Source of the DNA: Acidobacteriota bacterium | GTDB lineage: Bacteria > Acidobacteriota > Blastocatellia > UBA7656 | Reading direction: 5' to 3' | Assembly (NCBI GenBank): GCA_040754075.1 | Contig: JBFMDH010000001.1 | Location: forward strand, 166,262-230,261 | Length of the DNA stretch: 64,000 nucleotides | Part shown: in pieces, positions 37,529 to 58,950 of the stretch | How positions within the stretch are numbered: position 1 is the stretch's first letter | Layout: each line of letters starts with the position of its first letter | The notes under the pieces: model-generated | What the model saw: only the letters and a program-made list of their open reading frames with translations | Databases searched by the model: none | Told to the model about the DNA's origin: nothing | Program-made: the position numbers and the translations under genes

Positions 37529-37584
37529 ATAGAAAAACGATTTAAAACTGGCACATGCAAAGAAGAAATTGGGAGAGCGGTTTT

Positions 37585-37941
37585 ATGGAGTATTCGGTCA
37601 TCGTTGAAAATCATAATGGCGTTTGGCGGGCGGTGATTCCGGCGCTTTCTGACCTCTCGGCAGAAGGCGCGTCGGAAGCAGAAGCGGTTGACCGAGCCAA
37701 ACAAGCGGCAGAGAAGTTTCTCGCCTCAGTGAAGATCAAAACGATTGCAGTTAATGTATCCAAGGACGCAGAACCAAGACCGGATAGCCCCCAAGCGTGG
37801 CTACGGGATGCCGGAGCATTTGTTGGCGATGAAGCAGCCATGCTGCAACACATAGAAGAAATTTACGCGGAAAGACAAAGACAGCAAAAAGAGGCGGAGT
37901 TAGAAGAGACACTAACGGGAACGGATAAACCGGCAGCATGA
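37585..37941 (+). CDS. HicB-like (UPF0150) antitoxin-type protein
   Basis: MEYSVIVENHNGVWRAVIPALSDLSAEGASEAEAVDRAKQAAEKFL is a typical HicB N-domain pattern. ATG at 37585 preceded by gggagag. 4 nt ATGA overlap with the PIN gene. Confidence 0.65.
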   Translation: MEYSVIVENHNGVWRAVIPALSDLSAEGASEAEAVDRAKQAAEKFLASVKIKTIAVNVSKDAEPRPDSPQAWLRDAGAFVGDEAAMLQHIEEIYAERQRQQKEAELEETLTGTDKPAA

Positions 37942-38360
37942 AAATCTATGTTTTAGACACAGATATTTGCGGTTTTGTGCAAAGTTCTCACTCGAATACG
38001 CTTCAACAACTGATGTCACTTCCCGCAGAGGCTGTAGTGGTTACCACAATTATTACTTTCGGAGAAGACTTGAGCGGTTGGCTTCCCGCTTGTCGCCATG
38101 CCAAAGATGGCATAACCCGCAGCAAAGCTTTTGCGCGATTACAGAACGGTTTGAAATTTTACTTGAAGCGTCGCTGCTTACCTTTCGATGATGCGGCGGT
38201 GGTTATTTTTGACAAACTGAAATCGCTTAAACTACATATTGGAAATAATGATTTGAGCATTGCAGCCATTACCCTGGCGGTCGGTGGCATTCTCGTAACT
38301 CGCAATGCCAAAGATTTCCAACGCATCCCTGATTTACCATTGGAAGATTGGACAGTATGA
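37938..38360 (+). CDS. vapC: PIN-domain toxin (VapC family)
   Basis: 140 aa. MKIYVLDTDI (first acidic residue), internal GNNDLSIAA and VTRNAKDF are typical VapC motifs. Confidence 0.8.
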   Translation: MKIYVLDTDICGFVQSSHSNTLQQLMSLPAEAVVVTTIITFGEDLSGWLPACRHAKDGITRSKAFARLQNGLKFYLKRRCLPFDDAAVVIFDKLKSLKLHIGNNDLSIAAITLAVGGILVTRNAKDFQRIPDLPLEDWTV

Positions 38361-49091: not shown

Positions 49092-52000
49092 ATGCCGGAA
49101 TATTCCTTTCGTCTGACAATTATTTTTCAGACTTTTGAAAATGACACTGAGCTTGCCGAAGCTCTTTTTTTTCCCGAAATCTCCCGATTTGGCGATAAAG
49201 CGAAAAAATTAGAGAACGCGGTTAAGGAAAATGTCGTGCGCCTTGTCGAAGAAGACGATGCGCTCGCGCTCTATCGTCGTCACTTTACGAGCGAGCCTGA
49301 ACTTGGTGAAGCGCGCGTCACCGTCAATCCGCCACCGAAATCCATCGCCTGGCAAAAGCCGATTGATCTTACTTTTCAAATCCTGCTCTTTACGCATGGC
49401 GAAGACCTGTACATCGCTCACCTTCCACAACTTGGTATCGAAATCATTGGCAGAAACCGGGAAGAACTTGAAGAGAAAATTCCCGCAGAAATTCACGCGC
49501 ATCTCTTACGCATCAAAAAAAATCGCTCACTTGGCGAATTGTTCTGGTTGCAACGCGCCAAAGCGATTCGCCTGGCGCGAACCACTTTTGACGCGACCAT
49601 TCGCACGCCGAAACAGATAGCCAAAAGTCAGTATGCCGCTGACGAAGAGAAAAAATCCGAGCTTGAAAAAGTGGCGACCGATTTAGTCAAAGAGCATTTA
49701 CCGGAGGCTTTTGAGATAGACGAAACCGTCACCCGCATTGCAGACGCGCTTGGCGGTCGCCATCCGCGCAGTGTTTTACTGGTCGGCAAATCGGGCGTCG
49801 GCAAAACCGCTGCGGTGTATGAACTGGTGCGCCGTCGCGCGGCGTTTCGTCTGAGTCGCACACCGTTTTACGCAACCAGCGGCTCGCGACTGGTTGCCGG
49901 CATGTCAGGTTTTGGCATGTGGCAGGAACGTTGCGGCAAAGTCTGGCGCGAGGCTGCAAAACAAAAAGCGATTCTGCATTTCGGCAATCTGCTCGAACTG
50001 ATGGAAGTTGGCAAAAGCACGGCGAACAATCAGGGTATCGCGTCATTCTTTCGCCCCTACATCAGTCGTGGCGATTTGCTCTGCATTGCCGAATGCGCGC
50101 CTGAACAATTGCCCATCATTGAACGCGAAGCGCCAAATCTGCTTGACGCTTTTTTGCAAATTAAAGTTGATGAACCGACAGTTGAACGCGGTTCGGCAAT
50201 TCTGCTGCATTATGCGATTGCGCAAAGCGGGCGCGAGTCGCCGGTTGACCTCGAAGCGATTGAAACGATTGATCGGTTGCATCGCCGCTATGCGACTTAT
50301 TCAGCCTATCCCGGTCGCCCTTTGCGGTTTTTGAAAAATTTATTGCAGGATCGCAAAGGCGGTTCCATCAATGCCGCGATGGTCACTGCGCGTTTTTCCG
50401 AAGAGACCGGTTTGCCGCTATTTTTACTGAACGATGACCTGCCGCTCGATTTAGCGGCGACGCAGAAATTTTTCAGTGAACGGGTCATCGGACAAGCGAG
50501 CGCCGTTGAGTTGGTGGTTAATTTACTGGCGACCGTCAAAGCGCGGCTCACGCGAGCCGGAAAACCGATTGCGTCGTTGATGTTCATCGGGCCCACCGGC
50601 GTTGGCAAAACCGAAATGGCAAAGGCGCTTGCCGAATTCTTATTTCAAAATCGCAATCGCCTGATTCGTTTCGATATGAGCGAATATGCCGATGTGAATT
50701 CCATCGGGCGACTGATTGGCGGCGCGTGGGGAAAAGAAGGCTTGCTTACCGCGAAGGTGCGCGAACAACCGTTTGCGGTGATTCTGCTTGATGAATTTGA
50801 GAAAGCCCATCCGTCATTTTTCGATTTGTTGTTGCAGGTTCTGGGCGAAGGTCGTTTGACCGATGCGATGGGGCGGGTTGCCGATTTTACCAACGCGGTG
50901 GTGATTATGACTTCCAATCTCGGCGCGGAAACTTATAAACGCAATGCGCTGGGGTTTCGTGACGCGACGGATGCCACTGCGCAGGCTCGCGAACATTTTA
51001 TGAAAGCGGTGCAGGCATTTGTGCGTCCCGAATTTTTCAACCGCATCGACCGTATCGTGCCGTTTACACCGCTTGATGAAGCGACCGTATTGAAAATTGC
51101 CCATCGTGAACTGCAACAGATTACGCGACGCGATGGCATTTTCTATCGCGGGGTTGAATTAAATATTACCGAGCAGGTGGCTGAGCGATTGGCGCGAATC
51201 GGCTACGATGCGCGGTATGGGGCGCGACCTCTGAAACGCGCCATCGAACGAGAATTGCTGGTGCCGATTTCCGAAGCGTTGAATTTGCAAACCCTCGATG
51301 TCGGTTTACAGGCGGAGGTGACTGTCGAAGGCGATGAATTGAGTGTAGCGGTGCGCCTTAAAACCGATGAAGCCGGGCGCGTGATTTCCAAATCGTCGAA
51401 GAGCGCGCCGTTTGCCGAACTGGTAAAACAGGCGGCGAAACTCCGCCGCGATGCGCAGAACCTGCGTGGCAGTATCTTTGTTCAGGAGATTCAAAACGAA
51501 ATATTCAACCTTGAACGACTGGCGATGCGGCTTGCGAAAAATAAAACAAAAAATAAATGGCAAGACCCGGCGCAAGCTACAAGCCTTGCGCGGTTGCCCG
51601 ATTTGAAAAATAAATTACAGGCGCTTGAGGTATTCGTCACCCAAACGGCGCAATTTGAAGACGCCGTGTTGTTCTGTTTTTACGGCAAGGAGACCGGCGA
51701 TAAAAACGGTTTGCAGGCGCAACTTGCCGGGATGCAAAAACAGTGGACGGCGCGGTTGTTGGAAATTTACGGATTGCAATTTAAAAAGCCGGATGCGGTG
51801 ACGGTGGCGCTCTATTCGGAAAATGCCAACTGGTTATTTGAACTGGCGCGTGCCTATTTTGAAATCGCGAAACAAATCATGGCGAACGTCGAGGTTGTGG
51901 AATTTGCGGTGCCGTCGCATCAGGAAAGCGAAGCGATAAAGCTTCGCGTCAAAGCCGGTGAAAAAGTTGAGGTTTTTAATTTGCTGGGGCGCGTGACCAT

Positions 52001-52394
52001 TAAACGCCAGGTGAAAAAGCCGGAGGAATTTTTATCCGCGCCGAACGCGCAAACCGTTGGTATCGTGTTGGGCATAGCGGGTGAAATGGTGTTTCCGAGA
52101 TTTGAACCCGAACATGATTTGCACGCCATGACGGTTGCCAAACAAACCCATAACTGTTTGGTACATACCAGTGAAGCGCGCCTCGAAGATTACCTGCCGG
52201 TGAAAGAATTGGATAAACGCGGCAGCATCAAGCATCAGGACGCGCGACGCCTTTATAACCGCGACGACAGCTCGGTTGAAGATTTGTCGCTTGAAGAGAA
52301 ATTTTACTTAGACCGTGATAATTTAGTTGCGGTTGTGCATCAGGCGATTGAACGCCGCTTGCTCAAAAGCGCGCAAGGATTGCTGGATGAATGA
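49092..52394 (+). CDS. atypical ClpA/ClpC-like double-AAA+ ATPase with novel N-domain and C-terminal release-factor-like module (paralogue 1)
   Basis: 1100 aa.
- NBD1: Walker A GKSGVGKT; Walker B position reads AILHFGNLLEL (no acidic pair).
- NBD2: GPTGVGKT, ILLDEFEKAH, TSNLG, GARPLKRAIEREL.
- LGF at aa 620-622, at the ClpA IGL-loop position.
- C-terminal aa ~775-1100 aligns with RF1/RF2 motifs (see findings). Confidence 0.85.
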   Translation: MPEYSFRLTIIFQTFENDTELAEALFFPEISRFGDKAKKLENAVKENVVRLVEEDDALALYRRHFTSEPELGEARVTVNPPPKSIAWQKPIDLTFQILLFTHGEDLYIAHLPQLGIEIIGRNREELEEKIPAEIHAHLLRIKKNRSLGELFWLQRAKAIRLARTTFDATIRTPKQIAKSQYAADEEKKSELEKVATDLVKEHLPEAFEIDETVTRIADALGGRHPRSVLLVGKSGVGKTAAVYELVRRRAAFRLSRTPFYATSGSRLVAGMSGFGMWQERCGKVWREAAKQKAILHFGNLLELMEVGKSTANNQGIASFFRPYISRGDLLCIAECAPEQLPIIEREAPNLLDAFLQIKVDEPTVERGSAILLHYAIAQSGRESPVDLEAIETIDRLHRRYATYSAYPGRPLRFLKNLLQDRKGGSINAAMVTARFSEETGLPLFLLNDDLPLDLAATQKFFSERVIGQASAVELVVNLLATVKARLTRAGKPIASLMFIGPTGVGKTEMAKALAEFLFQNRNRLIRFDMSEYADVNSIGRLIGGAWGKEGLLTAKVREQPFAVILLDEFEKAHPSFFDLLLQVLGEGRLTDAMGRVADFTNAVVIMTSNLGAETYKRNALGFRDATDATAQAREHFMKAVQAFVRPEFFNRIDRIVPFTPLDEATVLKIAHRELQQITRRDGIFYRGVELNITEQVAERLARIGYDARYGARPLKRAIERELLVPISEALNLQTLDVGLQAEVTVEGDELSVAVRLKTDEAGRVISKSSKSAPFAELVKQAAKLRRDAQNLRGSIFVQEIQNEIFNLERLAMRLAKNKTKNKWQDPAQATSLARLPDLKNKLQALEVFVTQTAQFEDAVLFCFYGKETGDKNGLQAQLAGMQKQWTARLLEIYGLQFKKPDAVTVALYSENANWLFELARAYFEIAKQIMANVEVVEFAVPSHQESEAIKLRVKAGEKVEVFNLLGRVTIKRQVKKPEEFLSAPNAQTVGIVLGIAGEMVFPRFEPEHDLHAMTVAKQTHNCLVHTSEARLEDYLPVKELDKRGSIKHQDARRLYNRDDSSVEDLSLEEKFYLDRDNLVAVVHQAIERRLLKSAQGLLDE

Positions 52395-52550
52395 TTGTTT
52401 GAATTAAAAAAATAAACCGCAGAGGATGCCAGGGGGTAACAGAGGAGGACAGAGAACTCGAAGTAAATTACGGTTTTTACTCTGCGTCGTTTGCGATGTC
52501 GAGAATGGGCAATTATCAATAACTCATAGTAAAAGCAATTTAAAACCGCT

Positions 52551-55500
52551 GTGAACATAACGCTTCCGATTTACATTCAAAAACCTGCGCCGCAAGACAC
52601 CTTGCCGCCGACGCATATTCTGCGCCCGCTGTTTTTCCCCTATATCGAAGTGCAGGGCGAAGACCTCAATCGCGCCGTCACCAAGCTGGCGCAAAAGATT
52701 CGCCACGAGTGTGACCGACTCGGTAAGGCGATGCGTCACGACCAACTTTCAAAATTTGGTTTCGCGCCTGACCTCGAAGACCGCTTTTTGAAACTCACGC
52801 TCGACCTCGGCAGTCGAAAAGCCGAGTGCAATTTTCTATTTGTCGTCATGCAAACGGTGGGGCGCAAAATTGCTTTTACTCCGGCGCTTGCCGATTTATG
52901 GTTTGAGATTCATCGCGGCGAAACCTTAGTCAACCGCGCCACCGAAGTTCTGTCGCATTACTTTCGCCAGAAACAGAAACGCGAAGGCAACGATGCCCTG
53001 AGACCCGAAGCCTTTTCGGTCAGCGGTAAAGCCTGGGTAACGACGCTCGACATCAGCATCAATCCACCGGCGCGCGCGCCCAAGCTTGTGCAAAATCTCT
53101 TTGCCCTGCTTGGCGAAGCGCCGCAGATGGATGGCGCGGAAGAACTCAATCGCGTCGGGCGATGCCTCGATTATCTTTACCCGGACGATTTGCAGCGGGT
53201 GATTTTTCGGGAGACGGAAACTGAAGCCTTGACCGCGATTTTGAAATCGCAGGACAAACGCCCGGTGCTGTTAATCGGCGAACGCCTGGTCGGAAAGACG
53301 GCGATCATTCACGAATATGTGCATCGCGCTGTGAGCCAACGTCACTCGAAATTCGACGCGAAAAATCAAGTGTGGTTGATTGCGCCGCAACGGTTGATTT
53401 CGGGAATGTCTTACGTCGGGCAGTGGGAAAACCGTCTGCTGGCGATTTTGAAAGTTGCGAAAAAAAAGCAACACATTCTCTACTTCGATGATTTGCTCGG
53501 ACTCTATCAAGCCGGGCAGAGCGCCAGTTCTTCTCTAAGCGTTGCCGATGTTTTAAAACCTTATGTAGAAAAACGCGAAGTGCGCATCCTTGGCGAAATC
53601 ACTCCCGAAGCCTTTCGGGTATTTCAGGAACGCGACCGCGGCTTTGCCGATTCCTTTCATCTGTTGCCGGTCAAAGAACCCGATGAAGATAAAACCTTTC
53701 GCATTCTTCTGCATTTGATGCGCGAGCTTGAGCGCAAACATCGCGCCACTTTTTCTACGGATGTTTTTCCGACAGTGATGGATGTGCAGCGACGCTACAC
53801 ACGCGATGCGGTGTTCCCCGGCAAGGCGGCGATTTTCCTGCAACAACTCGCCGTCAAATATCGCCACGAGCGCGTCACCCGCGATGAAGTATTACAGGAG
53901 TTTCACGCGAAAAGCGGTTTCAGCTTGAATTTTTTGAATGATGAAAACAAACTCACACGGCAAGAGGTAATCGAAGCGGTCGGCAATACGGTCATCGGGC
54001 AGGAGGCGGCGCTTGCTGCCTGTGCGGATGTGGTGTCGATGGCAAAGGCGCGGCTCAATGACCCAGACCGCCCGCTCGCGTCGTTTCTGTTTTTAGGACC
54101 CACAGGGGTTGGCAAAACCCAATGCGCGAAATCGCTTGCGGCATATCTGTACGGCGATGGCGATAAACTTATTCGTTTCGATATGAATGAATATTCGTCG
54201 CCCTATGCGGTGGCAAGACTGGTCGGCACATTCCATCAACCCGAAGGATTGCTCACCAGCGCCGCGCGGCGGCAACCGTTTTCGGTAGTGTTGTTTGATG
54301 AAATCGAAAAGGCGCACCCGGATGTTTTCAATCTTTTATTGCAGGTAATGGGTGACGGGCGGCTTACGGATGCGCTCGGACGAACGGTCGATTTTACCAA
54401 CGCGATGGTCATTTTAACCTCGAACCTCGGCGTCAAAGAGGCTGCGAAAAATCTGGGCTTTCATCGTGACAGAGAACGCGATGGGCAGGTTTATACGCAA
54501 GCCGCCGAGAAATTTTTCAAGCCGGAATTTTTCAATCGCCTCGACCGCATCGTGCCGTTTGCAAGGCTCGGACGCGAAGAGGTGATGCAGATTGCCGAAG
54601 GGTTGATTCAACAGGTTTTTGCGCGTGAAGGATTGGTGCGCCGCAAATGTATTTTACAGGTGGATGAACGGGCAATGGCGCGCATTGTTGAGGAAGGTTA
54701 TCACCCACAACTCGGAGCGCGCGCCCTGAAACGCCTGCTTGAACGCGAGTTGACCCAACCGGTGGCAAGACAACTTGCGACTCTTAAACCCGATGCGCCC
54801 ACGCTCATTAAAGTTTATCCGGCGGCAAGTGAGCTAAAAGTTACGGTCGATTCATTGAAAGGCGCAACGTTGAATGATGAGAGCGCAAGGTTGATTGAAG
54901 GGGTTGCGCCAAAACAGATTGTTGAGCTTGCGGAAGCCGCAGTTGACCGCATTGAATCGCAGGCGGCAAAGATGAGTCCGCAAGGGCTGATCAATCCCGA
55001 TGCCGTGGATGCTACACAACTCGCCTATTTTCAAATTCGCGAACAGGCGCGCCGGGCGCGTGAACTTTGTGAAAAGGTCGCGGCAAAAATCAAACCAACC
55101 GGAAAGCCACTGGTGTCGCGTTCACGCGGTCGCAGCATTGCGGCTTCGCAATTCACTTTGCGTCAGGTAAGCGTCGGAGATTTATGGCAACGATTGATTG
55201 AAGCGGGTGATGTGCGTCAGTTGATGCGCGAACTGCTAACCACTGCCCAACCCTATGGTGAACGCCTCGAAGATTACCTTTCAGAGTTAACGCGCGAGAC
55301 CGCCTTGCTTGAGGTGATTGCGCAAAGCAACGATGAGGTTTCAACCCATCAGGCATTGATGTTGATTCAATCGCTGGACGAAGCCTTTAAAGTCGAGCGT
55401 GAACGGCTGGCAAAAATTTATCACGAACTCTTTACCTATAAACTGGGAAGCCGCGCAGAGTTATTGACCGGCAATCAGGAGGCGGCGGCTTTGCACAGCG

Positions 55501-55877
55501 ATGCCGTGTTGATTCAAGGCGTAAATGTGTTGGCGCTGGCTAAACCCGAAACCGGCGCTCACCTGTTTTACACGGCTAAAGAACAACTCGTGCCGTTGCA
55601 AATTCACGTCTTGCCGGTAATTGACCATTCCGCAGCCGCGACGATTCGCCGGTTTGCTGAAAGTCAGAAGAGGCGATTAAGCGAGCCGGTCGATACCAAC
55701 GAAACCGATTTAAACGAGGCATCGGTTATTCGGGTTTATGAAGAGAACGGCGCGACGCTTGATTTACGCTCAGGACTGATGACGCTCAAGATGCCGACGA
55801 CGAAAGAACTGCGCGCCTTGTTACTTGCGGCTTTGCCATTGCCAATGGAGATGCAATCGGTAGTCGGTAGCCGGTAG
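52551..55877 (+). CDS. atypical ClpA/ClpC-like double-AAA+ ATPase with novel N-domain and C-terminal release-factor-like module (paralogue 2)
   Basis: 1108 aa, GTG start.
- NBD1: GERLVGKT; Walker B ILYFDDLL.
- NBD2: GPTGVGKT, VLFDEIEKAH, TSNLG, GARALKRLLEREL.
- LGF at aa 635-637.
- C-terminal aa ~785-1108 is RF-like (ETGAHLF, IRVYEENGATLDLRSG). Confidence 0.85.
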   Translation: MNITLPIYIQKPAPQDTLPPTHILRPLFFPYIEVQGEDLNRAVTKLAQKIRHECDRLGKAMRHDQLSKFGFAPDLEDRFLKLTLDLGSRKAECNFLFVVMQTVGRKIAFTPALADLWFEIHRGETLVNRATEVLSHYFRQKQKREGNDALRPEAFSVSGKAWVTTLDISINPPARAPKLVQNLFALLGEAPQMDGAEELNRVGRCLDYLYPDDLQRVIFRETETEALTAILKSQDKRPVLLIGERLVGKTAIIHEYVHRAVSQRHSKFDAKNQVWLIAPQRLISGMSYVGQWENRLLAILKVAKKKQHILYFDDLLGLYQAGQSASSSLSVADVLKPYVEKREVRILGEITPEAFRVFQERDRGFADSFHLLPVKEPDEDKTFRILLHLMRELERKHRATFSTDVFPTVMDVQRRYTRDAVFPGKAAIFLQQLAVKYRHERVTRDEVLQEFHAKSGFSLNFLNDENKLTRQEVIEAVGNTVIGQEAALAACADVVSMAKARLNDPDRPLASFLFLGPTGVGKTQCAKSLAAYLYGDGDKLIRFDMNEYSSPYAVARLVGTFHQPEGLLTSAARRQPFSVVLFDEIEKAHPDVFNLLLQVMGDGRLTDALGRTVDFTNAMVILTSNLGVKEAAKNLGFHRDRERDGQVYTQAAEKFFKPEFFNRLDRIVPFARLGREEVMQIAEGLIQQVFAREGLVRRKCILQVDERAMARIVEEGYHPQLGARALKRLLERELTQPVARQLATLKPDAPTLIKVYPAASELKVTVDSLKGATLNDESARLIEGVAPKQIVELAEAAVDRIESQAAKMSPQGLINPDAVDATQLAYFQIREQARRARELCEKVAAKIKPTGKPLVSRSRGRSIAASQFTLRQVSVGDLWQRLIEAGDVRQLMRELLTTAQPYGERLEDYLSELTRETALLEVIAQSNDEVSTHQALMLIQSLDEAFKVERERLAKIYHELFTYKLGSRAELLTGNQEAAALHSDAVLIQGVNVLALAKPETGAHLFYTAKEQLVPLQIHVLPVIDHSAAATIRRFAESQKRRLSEPVDTNETDLNEASVIRVYEENGATLDLRSGLMTLKMPTTKELRALLLAALPLPMEMQSVVGSR

Positions 55878-55885
55878 CCGGTTAT
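55858..55885. repeat. (CGGTAGC)-type heptamer array overlapping the last codons and stop of AAA+ paralogue 2
   Basis: cggtagt cggtagc cggtagc cggttat. Encodes ...SVVGSR*. Confidence 0.75.
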
Positions 55886-55941
55886 GTGTTTAGTGGTTGA
55901 ATAGAGCGAGGAAGGCTTATGATAAAAAACCGGAGGTAATT

Positions 55942-56553
55942 ATGAGGAACTTCATGTACTGCTTTTTATTTTTATCAAGCCTTTTGACCTTATTGTTGAT
56001 GGTCACGCCGACCGCGAAAGCCTGTACACGCGCCGGCCCGTTTACGTTTAATGAGTTATTCGATAATGCAGAGGTGATTGTGCGGGCTACCGCCGTTAAG
56101 TATGCAAAGGTTCCTGATAATCCGAATATGCGGACAACGGGAGAGCCGGATTCAATTATTCAATTCAAGGTTGAAGAAATACTGAGAGGCAAAAACCTCG
56201 CGAGTACCATCCTGCTCAATGGTTATTTGAGTGATAGTGATGATTACAACGAACAGCCTGTACCTTATACCTTCGTCCGTCCGAATGGTCGCGATGGAAG
56301 TTGCTTTGCGAATACCTATAAACAAGGCGGGCAATTTCTCTTGTTTTTAAAAAAAGTCGACAGTGAATATACGCCCAATATCAGCGCACTTGGCCCAACC
56401 AATGAACAATTGCGAGATGAAAACGACCCCTGGTTGAAATGGGTTAAAGAGCATTTGAAAACCGAAACGAAGCGCAAGCCGCGACTTGCGCTGAACTGGA
56501 AATCACAATTCATAATCGAACACCTCTTCGATAGGGATTGGATATTGGTTTAG
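55942..56553 (+). CDS. hypothetical secreted protein embedded in the AAA+ cluster
   Basis: ATG at 55942 preceded by ggagg. MRNFMYCFLFLSSLLTLLLMVTPTAKAC signal peptide. No recognised domain. Visibly AT-richer than the flanking AAA+ genes (by eye). Confidence 0.55.
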   Translation: MRNFMYCFLFLSSLLTLLLMVTPTAKACTRAGPFTFNELFDNAEVIVRATAVKYAKVPDNPNMRTTGEPDSIIQFKVEEILRGKNLASTILLNGYLSDSDDYNEQPVPYTFVRPNGRDGSCFANTYKQGGQFLLFLKKVDSEYTPNISALGPTNEQLRDENDPWLKWVKEHLKTETKRKPRLALNWKSQFIIEHLFDRDWILV

Positions 56554-56643
56554 CCATTCAGGGACATCAAAAAACGGGCAAGGATATTTGAGGTGTTGAG
56601 ATTGAACCTCCTTCGCCCGCTCTTATAAACGTTAAAGGAAAGA

Positions 56644-58950
56644 ATGCCGAGTTTTCGTTTTCCAATTTTAATCTGGGAAGACCACGAAGGATATTTTACC
56701 GCGTGTCCGGTCGAGGGTTTTTATAACACTTTTGCGGGAATAGGTCGCAGTGCCAGTGAAGCGGTTTTTCAATTGAAAGAATTTCTCGCTTATCACTACG
56801 AGAAAAACCCCTGGGCAGCGCCGCCCGATTTTCACGACGCCAAACTCATCGAATTTCGCGCTGATGTGCGCCCGGAATATCGCATTGAAGAAATTGTCGG
56901 CGACCGCAAACAAAAAAATATTTACCCGACCGAAGAAACCCTCGCCTTGCGTTTTGCCTGTGTACACGGCAAACAGCAAGCCGGATTGCTCATCTGTGTG
57001 CTGCCGCTTTTCGGCATACAATTTTATTACTACGATGAAAAGAAACTGAAAGAACTGGCGGTCACCTATGTGCAGGAGAGTTTCAAAGGTCTTGCCCCAC
57101 AACAACTCACAAGATTCTTACCGCCTAAAAATTATCGACTTGATGAAATCGTCATCAATGTTTCACGCAAAGAAACCAGATACGAATACCAACCCTCGCT
57201 TGACACCTTGAACGAAATTGCCGAACCCCTCGGCGACAAACGATTGCGCAGACAATTTTCCGCCGCCTGGGAGCGTGACACGGAAGTTAGAGACCTCGCC
57301 CAGCGCATCGGCAAAGAGAAAGCCAACGTCATCATCGTCGGCGACAGCGGCATCGGTAAAACCACTTTGCTGGTGAACGCGGTGCGTGAAGTTGAACAGC
57401 ATATGATTGCGGGCGATGACGAAGAAAACGCCGGGCGCAAAGCCAGACACCGATTTTATTTGACCAGCGGCGCGCGCATCATCGCAGGGATGCGCTATCT
57501 CGGTCAGTGGGAAGAGCGGGTTGAATCGCTCATTGATGAGCTTGCGGAAATCAATGGCGTGTTATGCGTCGGCAGCATTTTGGACTTAATCCTTGCAGGC
57601 GGTGAAGTGAGCGCCAGCATCGCGGCATTTTTACAGCCCTTTCTGCAACGCGGCGAATTGCAACTCGTAGGCGAAGCGACGCCCACCGAACTCGATGCCT
57701 GCCGAAGATTATTGCCGGGATTTGCCAGCCTGTTTCAAATTCTCAATCTGCAACCGTTCAATCGCGCCCAGGCGATTGCGATTTTGCAACGCGCTTCGGA
57801 AACTTATCAGCGCAATTATCGCATTGAGGCGGCAAGCATCCTGCCGGAACTCGTCTATCGTTTGTTCAATCGCTTCTCGCCTTATCAGGCATTCCCCGGA
57901 AAAGCCATTGCCTTTCTGCATTCGGCATTTGAACGCGCCGAACTTGAACATAAAACGGCAATCACCGGCGAAGACCTGATTCAAAAGTTTGTGCGGCAGA
58001 CCGGACTCCCCGAACTTTTTTTACGCGATGAATTGCCGCTCAACCAGTATGACATCGTTGAATTTTTTGAACAGCAGGTCATCGGGCAACGCGCCGCCTG
58101 TGAAGTTGCGGCAAATCTGGTGACTACATTCAAAGCCGGGTTGAACGACCCGCAACGCCCGATTGGGGTGTTGCTGTTTTGCGGGCCGACCGGGGTTGGC
58201 AAAACCCAACTCGCAAAAGCGATTTCGGAATACCTGTTCGGACAAGGCGAAGAACGCAACCGCTTAATCCGGCTCGATATGAGCGAATATGGCGATTTCG
58301 GCGCGGCAGAACGTTTGATTACCAAGCCCAATGGCGAGCCGAGCGATTTGATTCAGCGGGTACGCCAGCAACCATTCGTTGTGGTGTTGTTCGATGAAAT
58401 CGAAAAAGCCGACGTAGCGGTTTTCGATGCGTTGCTCAGTGTTTTCGATGAAGGGCGCATCACCGACCGTTACGGGCGAACCACTTCATTTCGCAGCGCC
58501 ATCATTATCGCGACGTCGAACATCGGCGCAGATAAAACCGCGAGCATCGGATTCGATGGTCACAATGTGCGCGGTTTTGCCGCGGAGGTGATGACTTTCT
58601 TTCGCCCGGAATTTTTTAATCGCCTGGATGCGGTTGTCGGTTTTCGCGCGCTCGACGAAGAAGCGATTCTCAACGTAACGCGCAAAGAATTAGCTGAGAT
58701 TGCCAAACGCGAAGGGATAAACGCCTCGAATACCAGATTAATTTGGACAGAACGATTAATTGAATATATGGCGAAAGCCGGTTATGACGCGCGATATGGC
58801 GCGCGCCCTTTGCAACGCACCATTGAACAGATGATCGTTGCGCCGCTTTCGCGATTCCTGCTTGAACACCTGATGAGCAAAGGCAAAACCATTCAAGCCG
58901 ATTTCCTCAATGGCGAAATCCGTTTTTCAACTACGGAACATACGGAATAG
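56644..58950 (+). CDS. atypical ClpA/ClpC-like double-AAA+ ATPase with novel N-domain, no C-terminal extension (paralogue 3)
   Basis: 768 aa.
- NBD1: GDSGIGKT; Walker B position reads GVLCVGSILDL.
- NBD2: GPTGVGKT, VLFDEIEKAD, TSNIG, GARPLQRTIEQ.
- IGF at aa 635-637. Confidence 0.85.
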   Translation: MPSFRFPILIWEDHEGYFTACPVEGFYNTFAGIGRSASEAVFQLKEFLAYHYEKNPWAAPPDFHDAKLIEFRADVRPEYRIEEIVGDRKQKNIYPTEETLALRFACVHGKQQAGLLICVLPLFGIQFYYYDEKKLKELAVTYVQESFKGLAPQQLTRFLPPKNYRLDEIVINVSRKETRYEYQPSLDTLNEIAEPLGDKRLRRQFSAAWERDTEVRDLAQRIGKEKANVIIVGDSGIGKTTLLVNAVREVEQHMIAGDDEENAGRKARHRFYLTSGARIIAGMRYLGQWEERVESLIDELAEINGVLCVGSILDLILAGGEVSASIAAFLQPFLQRGELQLVGEATPTELDACRRLLPGFASLFQILNLQPFNRAQAIAILQRASETYQRNYRIEAASILPELVYRLFNRFSPYQAFPGKAIAFLHSAFERAELEHKTAITGEDLIQKFVRQTGLPELFLRDELPLNQYDIVEFFEQQVIGQRAACEVAANLVTTFKAGLNDPQRPIGVLLFCGPTGVGKTQLAKAISEYLFGQGEERNRLIRLDMSEYGDFGAAERLITKPNGEPSDLIQRVRQQPFVVVLFDEIEKADVAVFDALLSVFDEGRITDRYGRTTSFRSAIIIATSNIGADKTASIGFDGHNVRGFAAEVMTFFRPEFFNRLDAVVGFRALDEEAILNVTRKELAEIAKREGINASNTRLIWTERLIEYMAKAGYDARYGARPLQRTIEQMIVAPLSRFLLEHLMSKGKTIQADFLNGEIRFSTTEHTE

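Follow-up and report, generated by a model that had tools for sequence, protein, structure and literature searches.

Evidence for a tandem HicB-like N-domain in place of Clp_N in three Hsp100-like AAA+ paralogues of an Acidobacteriota bacterium

Introduction

In Hsp100/Clp machines, the N-domain determines target specificity, and its exchange or addition is a known route to altered specificity. Hsp100s with non-Clp_N or added N-domains include ClpE (zinc finger), ClpV/TssH and ClpG/ClpK (N1). Here, we describe three Clp-like proteins encoded in a window of 64,000 nucleotides (the whole stretch of DNA analysed) from an Acidobacteriota bacterium of the class Blastocatellia (assembly GCA_040754075.1, contig JBFMDH010000001.1, positions 166,262 to 230,261). 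Three large co-oriented open reading frames (ORFs) on the + strand (49092-58950) encode double AAA+ proteins, referred to as paralogue 1 (49092..52394, 1100 amino acids [aa]), paralogue 2 (52551..55877, 1108 aa) and paralogue 3 (56644..58950, 768 aa). An earlier note on this DNA, made from the sequence alone, proposed that all three begin with two tandem HicB-like modules in place of Clp_N.

The N-domain of HicB has a 'partial RNase H fold' with the topology β-β-β-α-β(-α) (PMC10865869), and the N-domains of Streptococcus pneumoniae HicB homodimerise via β1, α1 and β4 (PMC6159526). A survey of HicA/HicB architectures makes no mention of Clp or AAA+ fusions (PMC10865869). Similarly, when 8 million full texts were searched for HicB alongside Clp, AAA+ or Hsp100 and for fusions of them, only unrelated papers came up, and the proteins themselves carry only the database labels 'ClpC' or 'AAA family ATPase'. 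On the evidence presented below, we consider it fairly likely that a tandem HicB-fold domain has replaced Clp_N in these proteins, and we infer that it serves in recognition.

A domain of another kind at the Clp_N position

The paralogues belong to the Clp/Hsp100 proteins. All three match Pfam AAA_2 (E 1e-37 to 1e-47) and ClpB_D2-small (for paralogue 3, E 6e-37 and 2e-16, respectively), and their best matches in the Protein Data Bank (PDB) are ClpC and ClpB (E 1e-79 to 1e-73), the nearest solved relative of paralogue 3 being Staphylococcus aureus ClpC (6em8, E 7e-79). The NCBIfam equivalogs for ClpA, ClpB, ClpK/G and TssH are not reached: the paralogues score 286-378 bits where the cut-offs lie at 885-1900, between roughly one quarter and one third of what the curated models require.

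No Pfam or NCBIfam family, Clp_N among them, matches the first ~175-210 residues of the three proteins, and the N-regions scanned alone match neither Clp_N nor any other model at E<=10. Homology to the first AAA+ module (D1) of ClpB/ClpC starts near residue 160-205, and the family profile of paralogue 3 aligns to ClpB/ClpC from about position 160 on, equivalent to ClpB residue 138. Because the N-region is unmatched and the alignment begins only there, an uncatalogued domain of about 170 residues occupies the usual Clp_N place, in agreement with the replacement proposed in the earlier note.

The N-domain of paralogue 3 was modelled with AlphaFold2 over residues 1-220 from an alignment of 12 sequences. 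Five models are concordant, with a mean predicted local distance difference test score (pLDDT) of 77-80; over residues 1-172, values are mostly 83-92, down to 74 over residues 21-30. Secondary structure assigned with DSSP runs through strands 3-12, 18-22 and 32-34, helix 37-54 and strand 64-75 in module 1 (56650..56868, + strand, aa 3-75, pLDDT ~74-92). A β-hairpin of strands 78-85 and 88-95 (56875..56928, + strand, aa 78-95, pLDDT ~83-88), which bears a lineage-specific insertion in the family alignment, connects it to module 2 (56941..57159, + strand, aa 100-172), where strands 100-110, 116-120 and 125-129 are followed by helices 132-146 and 152-158 and strand 163-172. The modules read β-β-β-α-β and β-β-β-α-(α)-β, and the HicB-type topology appears twice in the model. 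In a PDB-wide fold search, solved HicB N-domains rank first by three-dimensional superposition, and HicB alone heads the rankings for two independent models. Solved HicB structures include those of Burkholderia pseudomallei (6g1c/6g1n), S. pneumoniae (5yrz), Yersinia pestis HicB3 (4p78) and Escherichia coli (6u0i).

Sequence signal and tandem duplication

A first, word-indexed search found 11 relatives. An exhaustive HMMER search raised the number to 478 cluster representatives at E<=1e-3 (155 at E<=1e-30), among which proteins of full length (730-860 aa) are numerous. Shallow profile-profile comparisons had given no information before the paralogue 3 family was deepened. The resulting N-domain profile of 58 sequences (identity down to 20%) has six matches among PDB sequences at E<=10, half of which are HicB/UPF0150 chains: TTHA1756 (2yzt, E 0.27), HicB (6u0i, E 0.47) and a HicB-family antitoxin (9svk, E 0.61). 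Each of these matches lies in register with module 1 (profile positions 3-55). The E-values are individually insignificant, but the enrichment for a single small family is in line with the outcome of the fold search.

The two modules also resemble each other. With the profiles of the three families merged, module 1 aligns to module 2 over 67 co-linear columns covering strands 1-4 (P 5.1e-5, probability 67%). The 'hydrophobic-Pro' motif of module 2 ('LP.LG') is invariant in the three families (P121 in paralogue 3, P112 and P111 in the others), with P121 unchanged in 58 family members. The repeated topology of the model, the module alignment, HicB signals on both modules and the invariant proline support an origin of the N-domain by tandem duplication. 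The twice-repeated pattern described in the earlier note is above chance, and it becomes visible only via deep profiles or structure. All peptides that the note quotes are found where its coordinates place them, at residues 4-51 and 100-147 of paralogue 3, 6-48 and 90-137 of paralogue 1, and within 3-50 and 93-138 of paralogue 2. Because HicB N-domain dimers exist, the tandem modules probably mimic such a dimer within one chain, and an intramolecular pseudo-dimer is a reasonable expectation by analogy.

The N-domain of paralogue 1 (49092..49607, + strand, aa 1-172) is known from sequence profiles and is homologous to that of paralogue 3 over both modules. The deep paralogue 3 profile aligns to the paralogue 1 family over 136 co-linear columns (hhalign probability 92%, E 5.5e-7), and module 2 of paralogue 3 aligns to module 2 of paralogue 1 with a probability of 95% and E 4e-8. 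For the N-domain of paralogue 2 (52551..53096, + strand, aa 1-182), confidence in the model is limited to the module 2 region (aa ~74-155); β-β-β-α is visible there, and the structural match to HicB lies in the same region. Profile comparison found no link between the paralogue 2 N-domain and the other paralogues, and genome and metagenome scans undertaken to deepen its profile yielded three loci each only.

Alternative explanations

Several results weigh against a HicB relationship. No HicB or UPF0150 model in Pfam or NCBIfam matches at E<=10, whether the query is one of the three N-regions, the 12 and 58 family members or six consensus sequences. A profile of module 2 alone retrieves no HicB chains among PDB sequences. 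The structure prediction for paralogue 2, from a 6-sequence alignment, is poor and largely disordered. Further, no hicA is found adjacent to the trio: a small HicA-like ORF was looked for at the locus and not found, and neither the small upstream ORFs nor a 218-aa ORF between paralogues 2 and 3 has a Pfam match. Given the lack of a curated-model match and the silent module 2 profile, the relation to HicB is one at fold level with faint sequence support. On sequence grounds, the N-domains are not members of the HicB family. The interpretation in the earlier note is supported, its HicB likeness holding for fold rank and topology but not for curated family assignment.

The strongest competing explanation is that the N-domain is a generic small α+β sandwich, of the shape class that includes double-stranded RNA-binding domains (dsRBDs), type III secretion chaperones and profilin, and that its likeness to HicB is convergent, unrelated to HicB/UPF0150 by descent. 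The failed tests with curated hidden Markov models (HMMs) leave room for this explanation; however, the exclusive ranking of HicB in two independent models and the profile matches in register lower its probability, and we regard convergence as rather unlikely. It is more doubtful still that only one half is HicB-like and the other an unrelated extension, which would leave no tandem duplication, as both the repeat in the topology and the alignment of one module to the other contradict it. An AlphaFold artefact of shallow alignments is very improbable: although the prediction alignments held only 12 and 6 sequences and one of the two models is largely disordered, the five paralogue 3 models agree at high pLDDT and the sequence-only evidence independently points the same way.

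Conservation, distribution and evolution

The order of paralogues 1, 2 and 3 is kept in a metagenome-assembled genome (MAG) of Blastocatellia (L001), in two MAGs of Pyrinomonadaceae (L002 and L003) and on a metagenome contig (L005). The flanks vary, with an aldo/keto reductase gene upstream and murA downstream in the window and L001. In L002 (2-4817, - strand) and L003 (1-6085, - strand), the divergent upstream region encodes a clostripain-family protein (Peptidase_C11) and a large TPR protein. In L002, the TPR protein includes a CHAT domain; in L003, it is cut off by the contig end, and a Peptidase_S41 protein is additionally encoded upstream. This clostripain/TPR neighbourhood is not present in the window or L001.

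Conservation differs by domain. Between the paralogues, N-domain identity is undetectable, compared with 27-30% in D1 and 41-47% in the second AAA+ module (D2), whereas orthologues in the window and L002 share 35-47%, 49-57% and 53-63%, respectively. BLASTP of N-region against N-region gives nothing significant among the paralogues. From these comparisons, the N-domain is constrained within each lineage, yet no other part has diverged as far from one paralogue to the next, a behaviour that a specificity domain would be expected to show. That the N-domains have passed beyond BLAST recognition while the ATPase bodies are 27-47% identical suggests distinct partners or mutual contact.

Proteins of the paralogue 3 type are by far the most widespread, forming a family of at least 155 clusters, and this type is probably the ancestral form, able to work alone. 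Cluster look-ups returned hardly any taxonomy outside Pyrinomonadaceae, and tblastn against plasmids found no homologues. A decayed variant of the locus (L007, 368-6245) occurs on six contigs. In its paralogue-1-type gene, an in-frame stop codon follows residue 158 and leaves a free-standing N-domain ORF, and a deletion has fused this gene to the distal D2 part of a paralogue-2-type gene. The variant also contains an inserted PIN_10/DUF433 pair, whereas its paralogue-3-type gene is intact. In another sequence (P0012), a paralogue 1 N-terminus apparently runs, from Walker A on, into a D2 like that of paralogue 2.

The ATPase body

Motifs were compared in an alignment of the three paralogues, their orthologues and 45 full-length family members, set against a ClpC alignment. 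In paralogue 3, a linker predicted at low confidence (57160..57258, + strand, aa 173-205, pLDDT 50-66) leads into D1 and corresponds to the linker between N-domain and D1 of ClpB (ClpB 138-221 against profile positions 160-240). D1 (57259..57963, + strand) has an intact Walker A (GDSGIGKTT), the pore loop AGMRYLGQWE and, as Walker B, VLCVGSILDL, in which 'VGS' replaces 'DE'. Walker A and the aromatic pore-loop residue (AGM[KR]YLGQW) are retained in D1 of the aligned proteins. The catalytic glutamate of Walker B (57559-57588 in paralogue 3) is missing from all three paralogues, which read FGN, FDD and VGS in the order 1 to 3; the family consensus is a single acidic residue followed by N, S, G or K. 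About 50 residues of ClpC between the aligned blocks, at the M-domain site, have no counterpart.

D2 with D2-small (58051..58947, + strand, in paralogue 3) is canonical in Walker A (GPTGVGKT), Walker B (DE[IF]EKA), arginine finger and sensor 2. Its pore loop (58312-58356) has a 5-residue gap facing ClpC 'YVGHD', and the canonical 'GYVG' is gone; because of this deletion, no conserved aromatic is found in the D2 pore loop across 60 aligned sequences. Judged by these motifs, D1 would be a ring that binds nucleotide without hydrolysis and D2 the motor. An [ILV]GF tripeptide (SIGF in paralogue 3, ALGF and NLGF in the others) lies opposite ClpC AGF and is kept in most family members. ClpC (VGF/AGF) and ClpA (IGL) carry their ClpP-docking loop at this position, and docking to ClpP may be possible through the tripeptide. 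The family-wide combination of a lost D1 glutamate, a deleted D2 'GYVG' and a retained ClpP-loop-like [ILV]GF is odd for a Clp unfoldase. In addition, PADLOC matches to known defence systems (DolB and PDC-M37B) were considered and rejected as an assignment, since they span only the generic ClpB-like D2 core and plasmids carry no homologues.

Paralogues 1 and 2 continue beyond D2-small with C-terminal extensions of ~340 aa (51372-52391) and ~350 aa (54831-55874), which paralogue 3 does not have. These extensions have no Pfam match, barely resemble each other (E 0.018) and are 30-33% conserved relative to their L002 orthologues.

Locus and neighbouring genes

The intergenic gaps of the trio are 157-364 nt, the 218-aa ORF (55897-56553) aside. 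This ORF has a hydrophobic N-terminal segment and zero Pfam or PADLOC matches; it is missing at the equivalent place in L001, L002 and L005, in which the two genes lie ~50-140 nt apart or overlap. No clpP, clpS or hicA-like genes adjoin the trio, nor is a small conserved partner gene seen in L001-L005. Promoter and terminator scans of the locus returned results at chance level only.

Outside the AAA+ locus, the earlier note had taken a small ORF (37555..37941, + strand, 128 aa) as a bona fide HicB-like antitoxin for comparison. The resemblance was borne out, as the module 1 profile of paralogue 3 aligns to it by hhalign in the expected register (P 1e-4, 39-54 columns), but the label was not: the ORF has no HicB-type match in Pfam, NCBIfam or PDB sequences, and its NCBIfam matches, such as Alba, are at chance level. 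It shows a HicB-like β-β-β-α pattern and overlaps the next ORF (37938-38360, 140 aa) by 4 bases, the two forming a putative toxin-antitoxin pair (37555-38360). A PIN match of the second ORF falls short of the threshold (E 0.0017; 19.4 bits, the cut-off being 23.6).

Interpretation and comparison with known systems

Taken at fold level, the first ~172-182 residues of each paralogue probably form a compact domain of two 'partial RNase H' fold copies joined by a β-hairpin, which takes the Clp_N position at the entry face of D1. We infer that this tandem domain is a platform for partner or substrate recognition. In HicB, helix α1 and the sheet of this fold bind the protein HicA, and pairs of these domains can form dimers. 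Each paralogue may recognise another partner, or the paralogues may contact one another. A more far-reaching and, in our view, improbable extension is that the trio makes up one specialised, possibly hetero-oligomeric Hsp100. Its HicB-fold domains, which would derive from antitoxins, would capture HicA-like or dsRBD-fold proteins or RNA-protein complexes, which would be remodelled or passed to ClpP by a non-canonical mechanism involving a non-hydrolysing D1 and a D2 devoid of pore tyrosines. If so, an antitoxin receptor and its unfoldase would be united in one fusion protein.

A HicB-type fold at the Clp_N place would join two well-studied systems, toxin-antitoxin recognition modules and AAA+ unfoldases, a link for which the searched literature holds no description, and would define an unannotated domain in at least 155 protein clusters. 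What makes these proteins attractive for experiments is the unusual state of the D1 and D2 motifs, together with the conservation of the trio. An Hsp100 lineage whose D1 is predicted to be hydrolysis-dead and whose D2 has no pore-loop tyrosine raises the question of how substrate is engaged, and the conserved three-paralogue operon offers a tractable way to ask whether the divergence of the N-domains creates distinct clients or a hetero-oligomer.

Among known Hsp100s, ClpE, ClpV/TssH and ClpG/ClpK follow the same principle of N-domain swapping, and in the searched literature none of them has a HicB or partial RNase H fold. ClpC and ClpA share with the paralogues the two AAA+ modules, AAA_2 with ClpB_D2-small, the canonical ATPase motifs of D2 and a loop tripeptide at the same position, [ILV]GF corresponding to AGF/VGF in ClpC and IGL in ClpA. 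Unlike them, the paralogues are without Clp_N, the catalytic glutamate of D1 Walker B and the D2 'GYVG', and paralogues 1 and 2 carry the additional C-terminal extensions of ~340 aa.

Compared with the HicB N-domains (6g1c/6g1n, 5yrz, 4p78 and 6u0i), the paralogues carry the module twice in one chain, their locus has no adjacent hicA and the proteins match no curated HicB HMM. They have neither the C-terminal ribbon-helix-helix/helix-turn-helix (RHH/HTH) domain of classical HicB nor a small stand-alone size; instead of the RHH/HTH DNA-binding domain, a two-ring AAA+ (D1/D2) follows. Similarly, the UPF0150 proteins TTHA1756 (2yzt), TTHA0281 (2dsy), TTHA1013 (1wv8) and that of Lactobacillus plantarum (3kwr) are single modules of ~70-80 aa, whereas in the paralogues the fold is the fused, duplicated N-domain of a 768-1108-aa ATPase.
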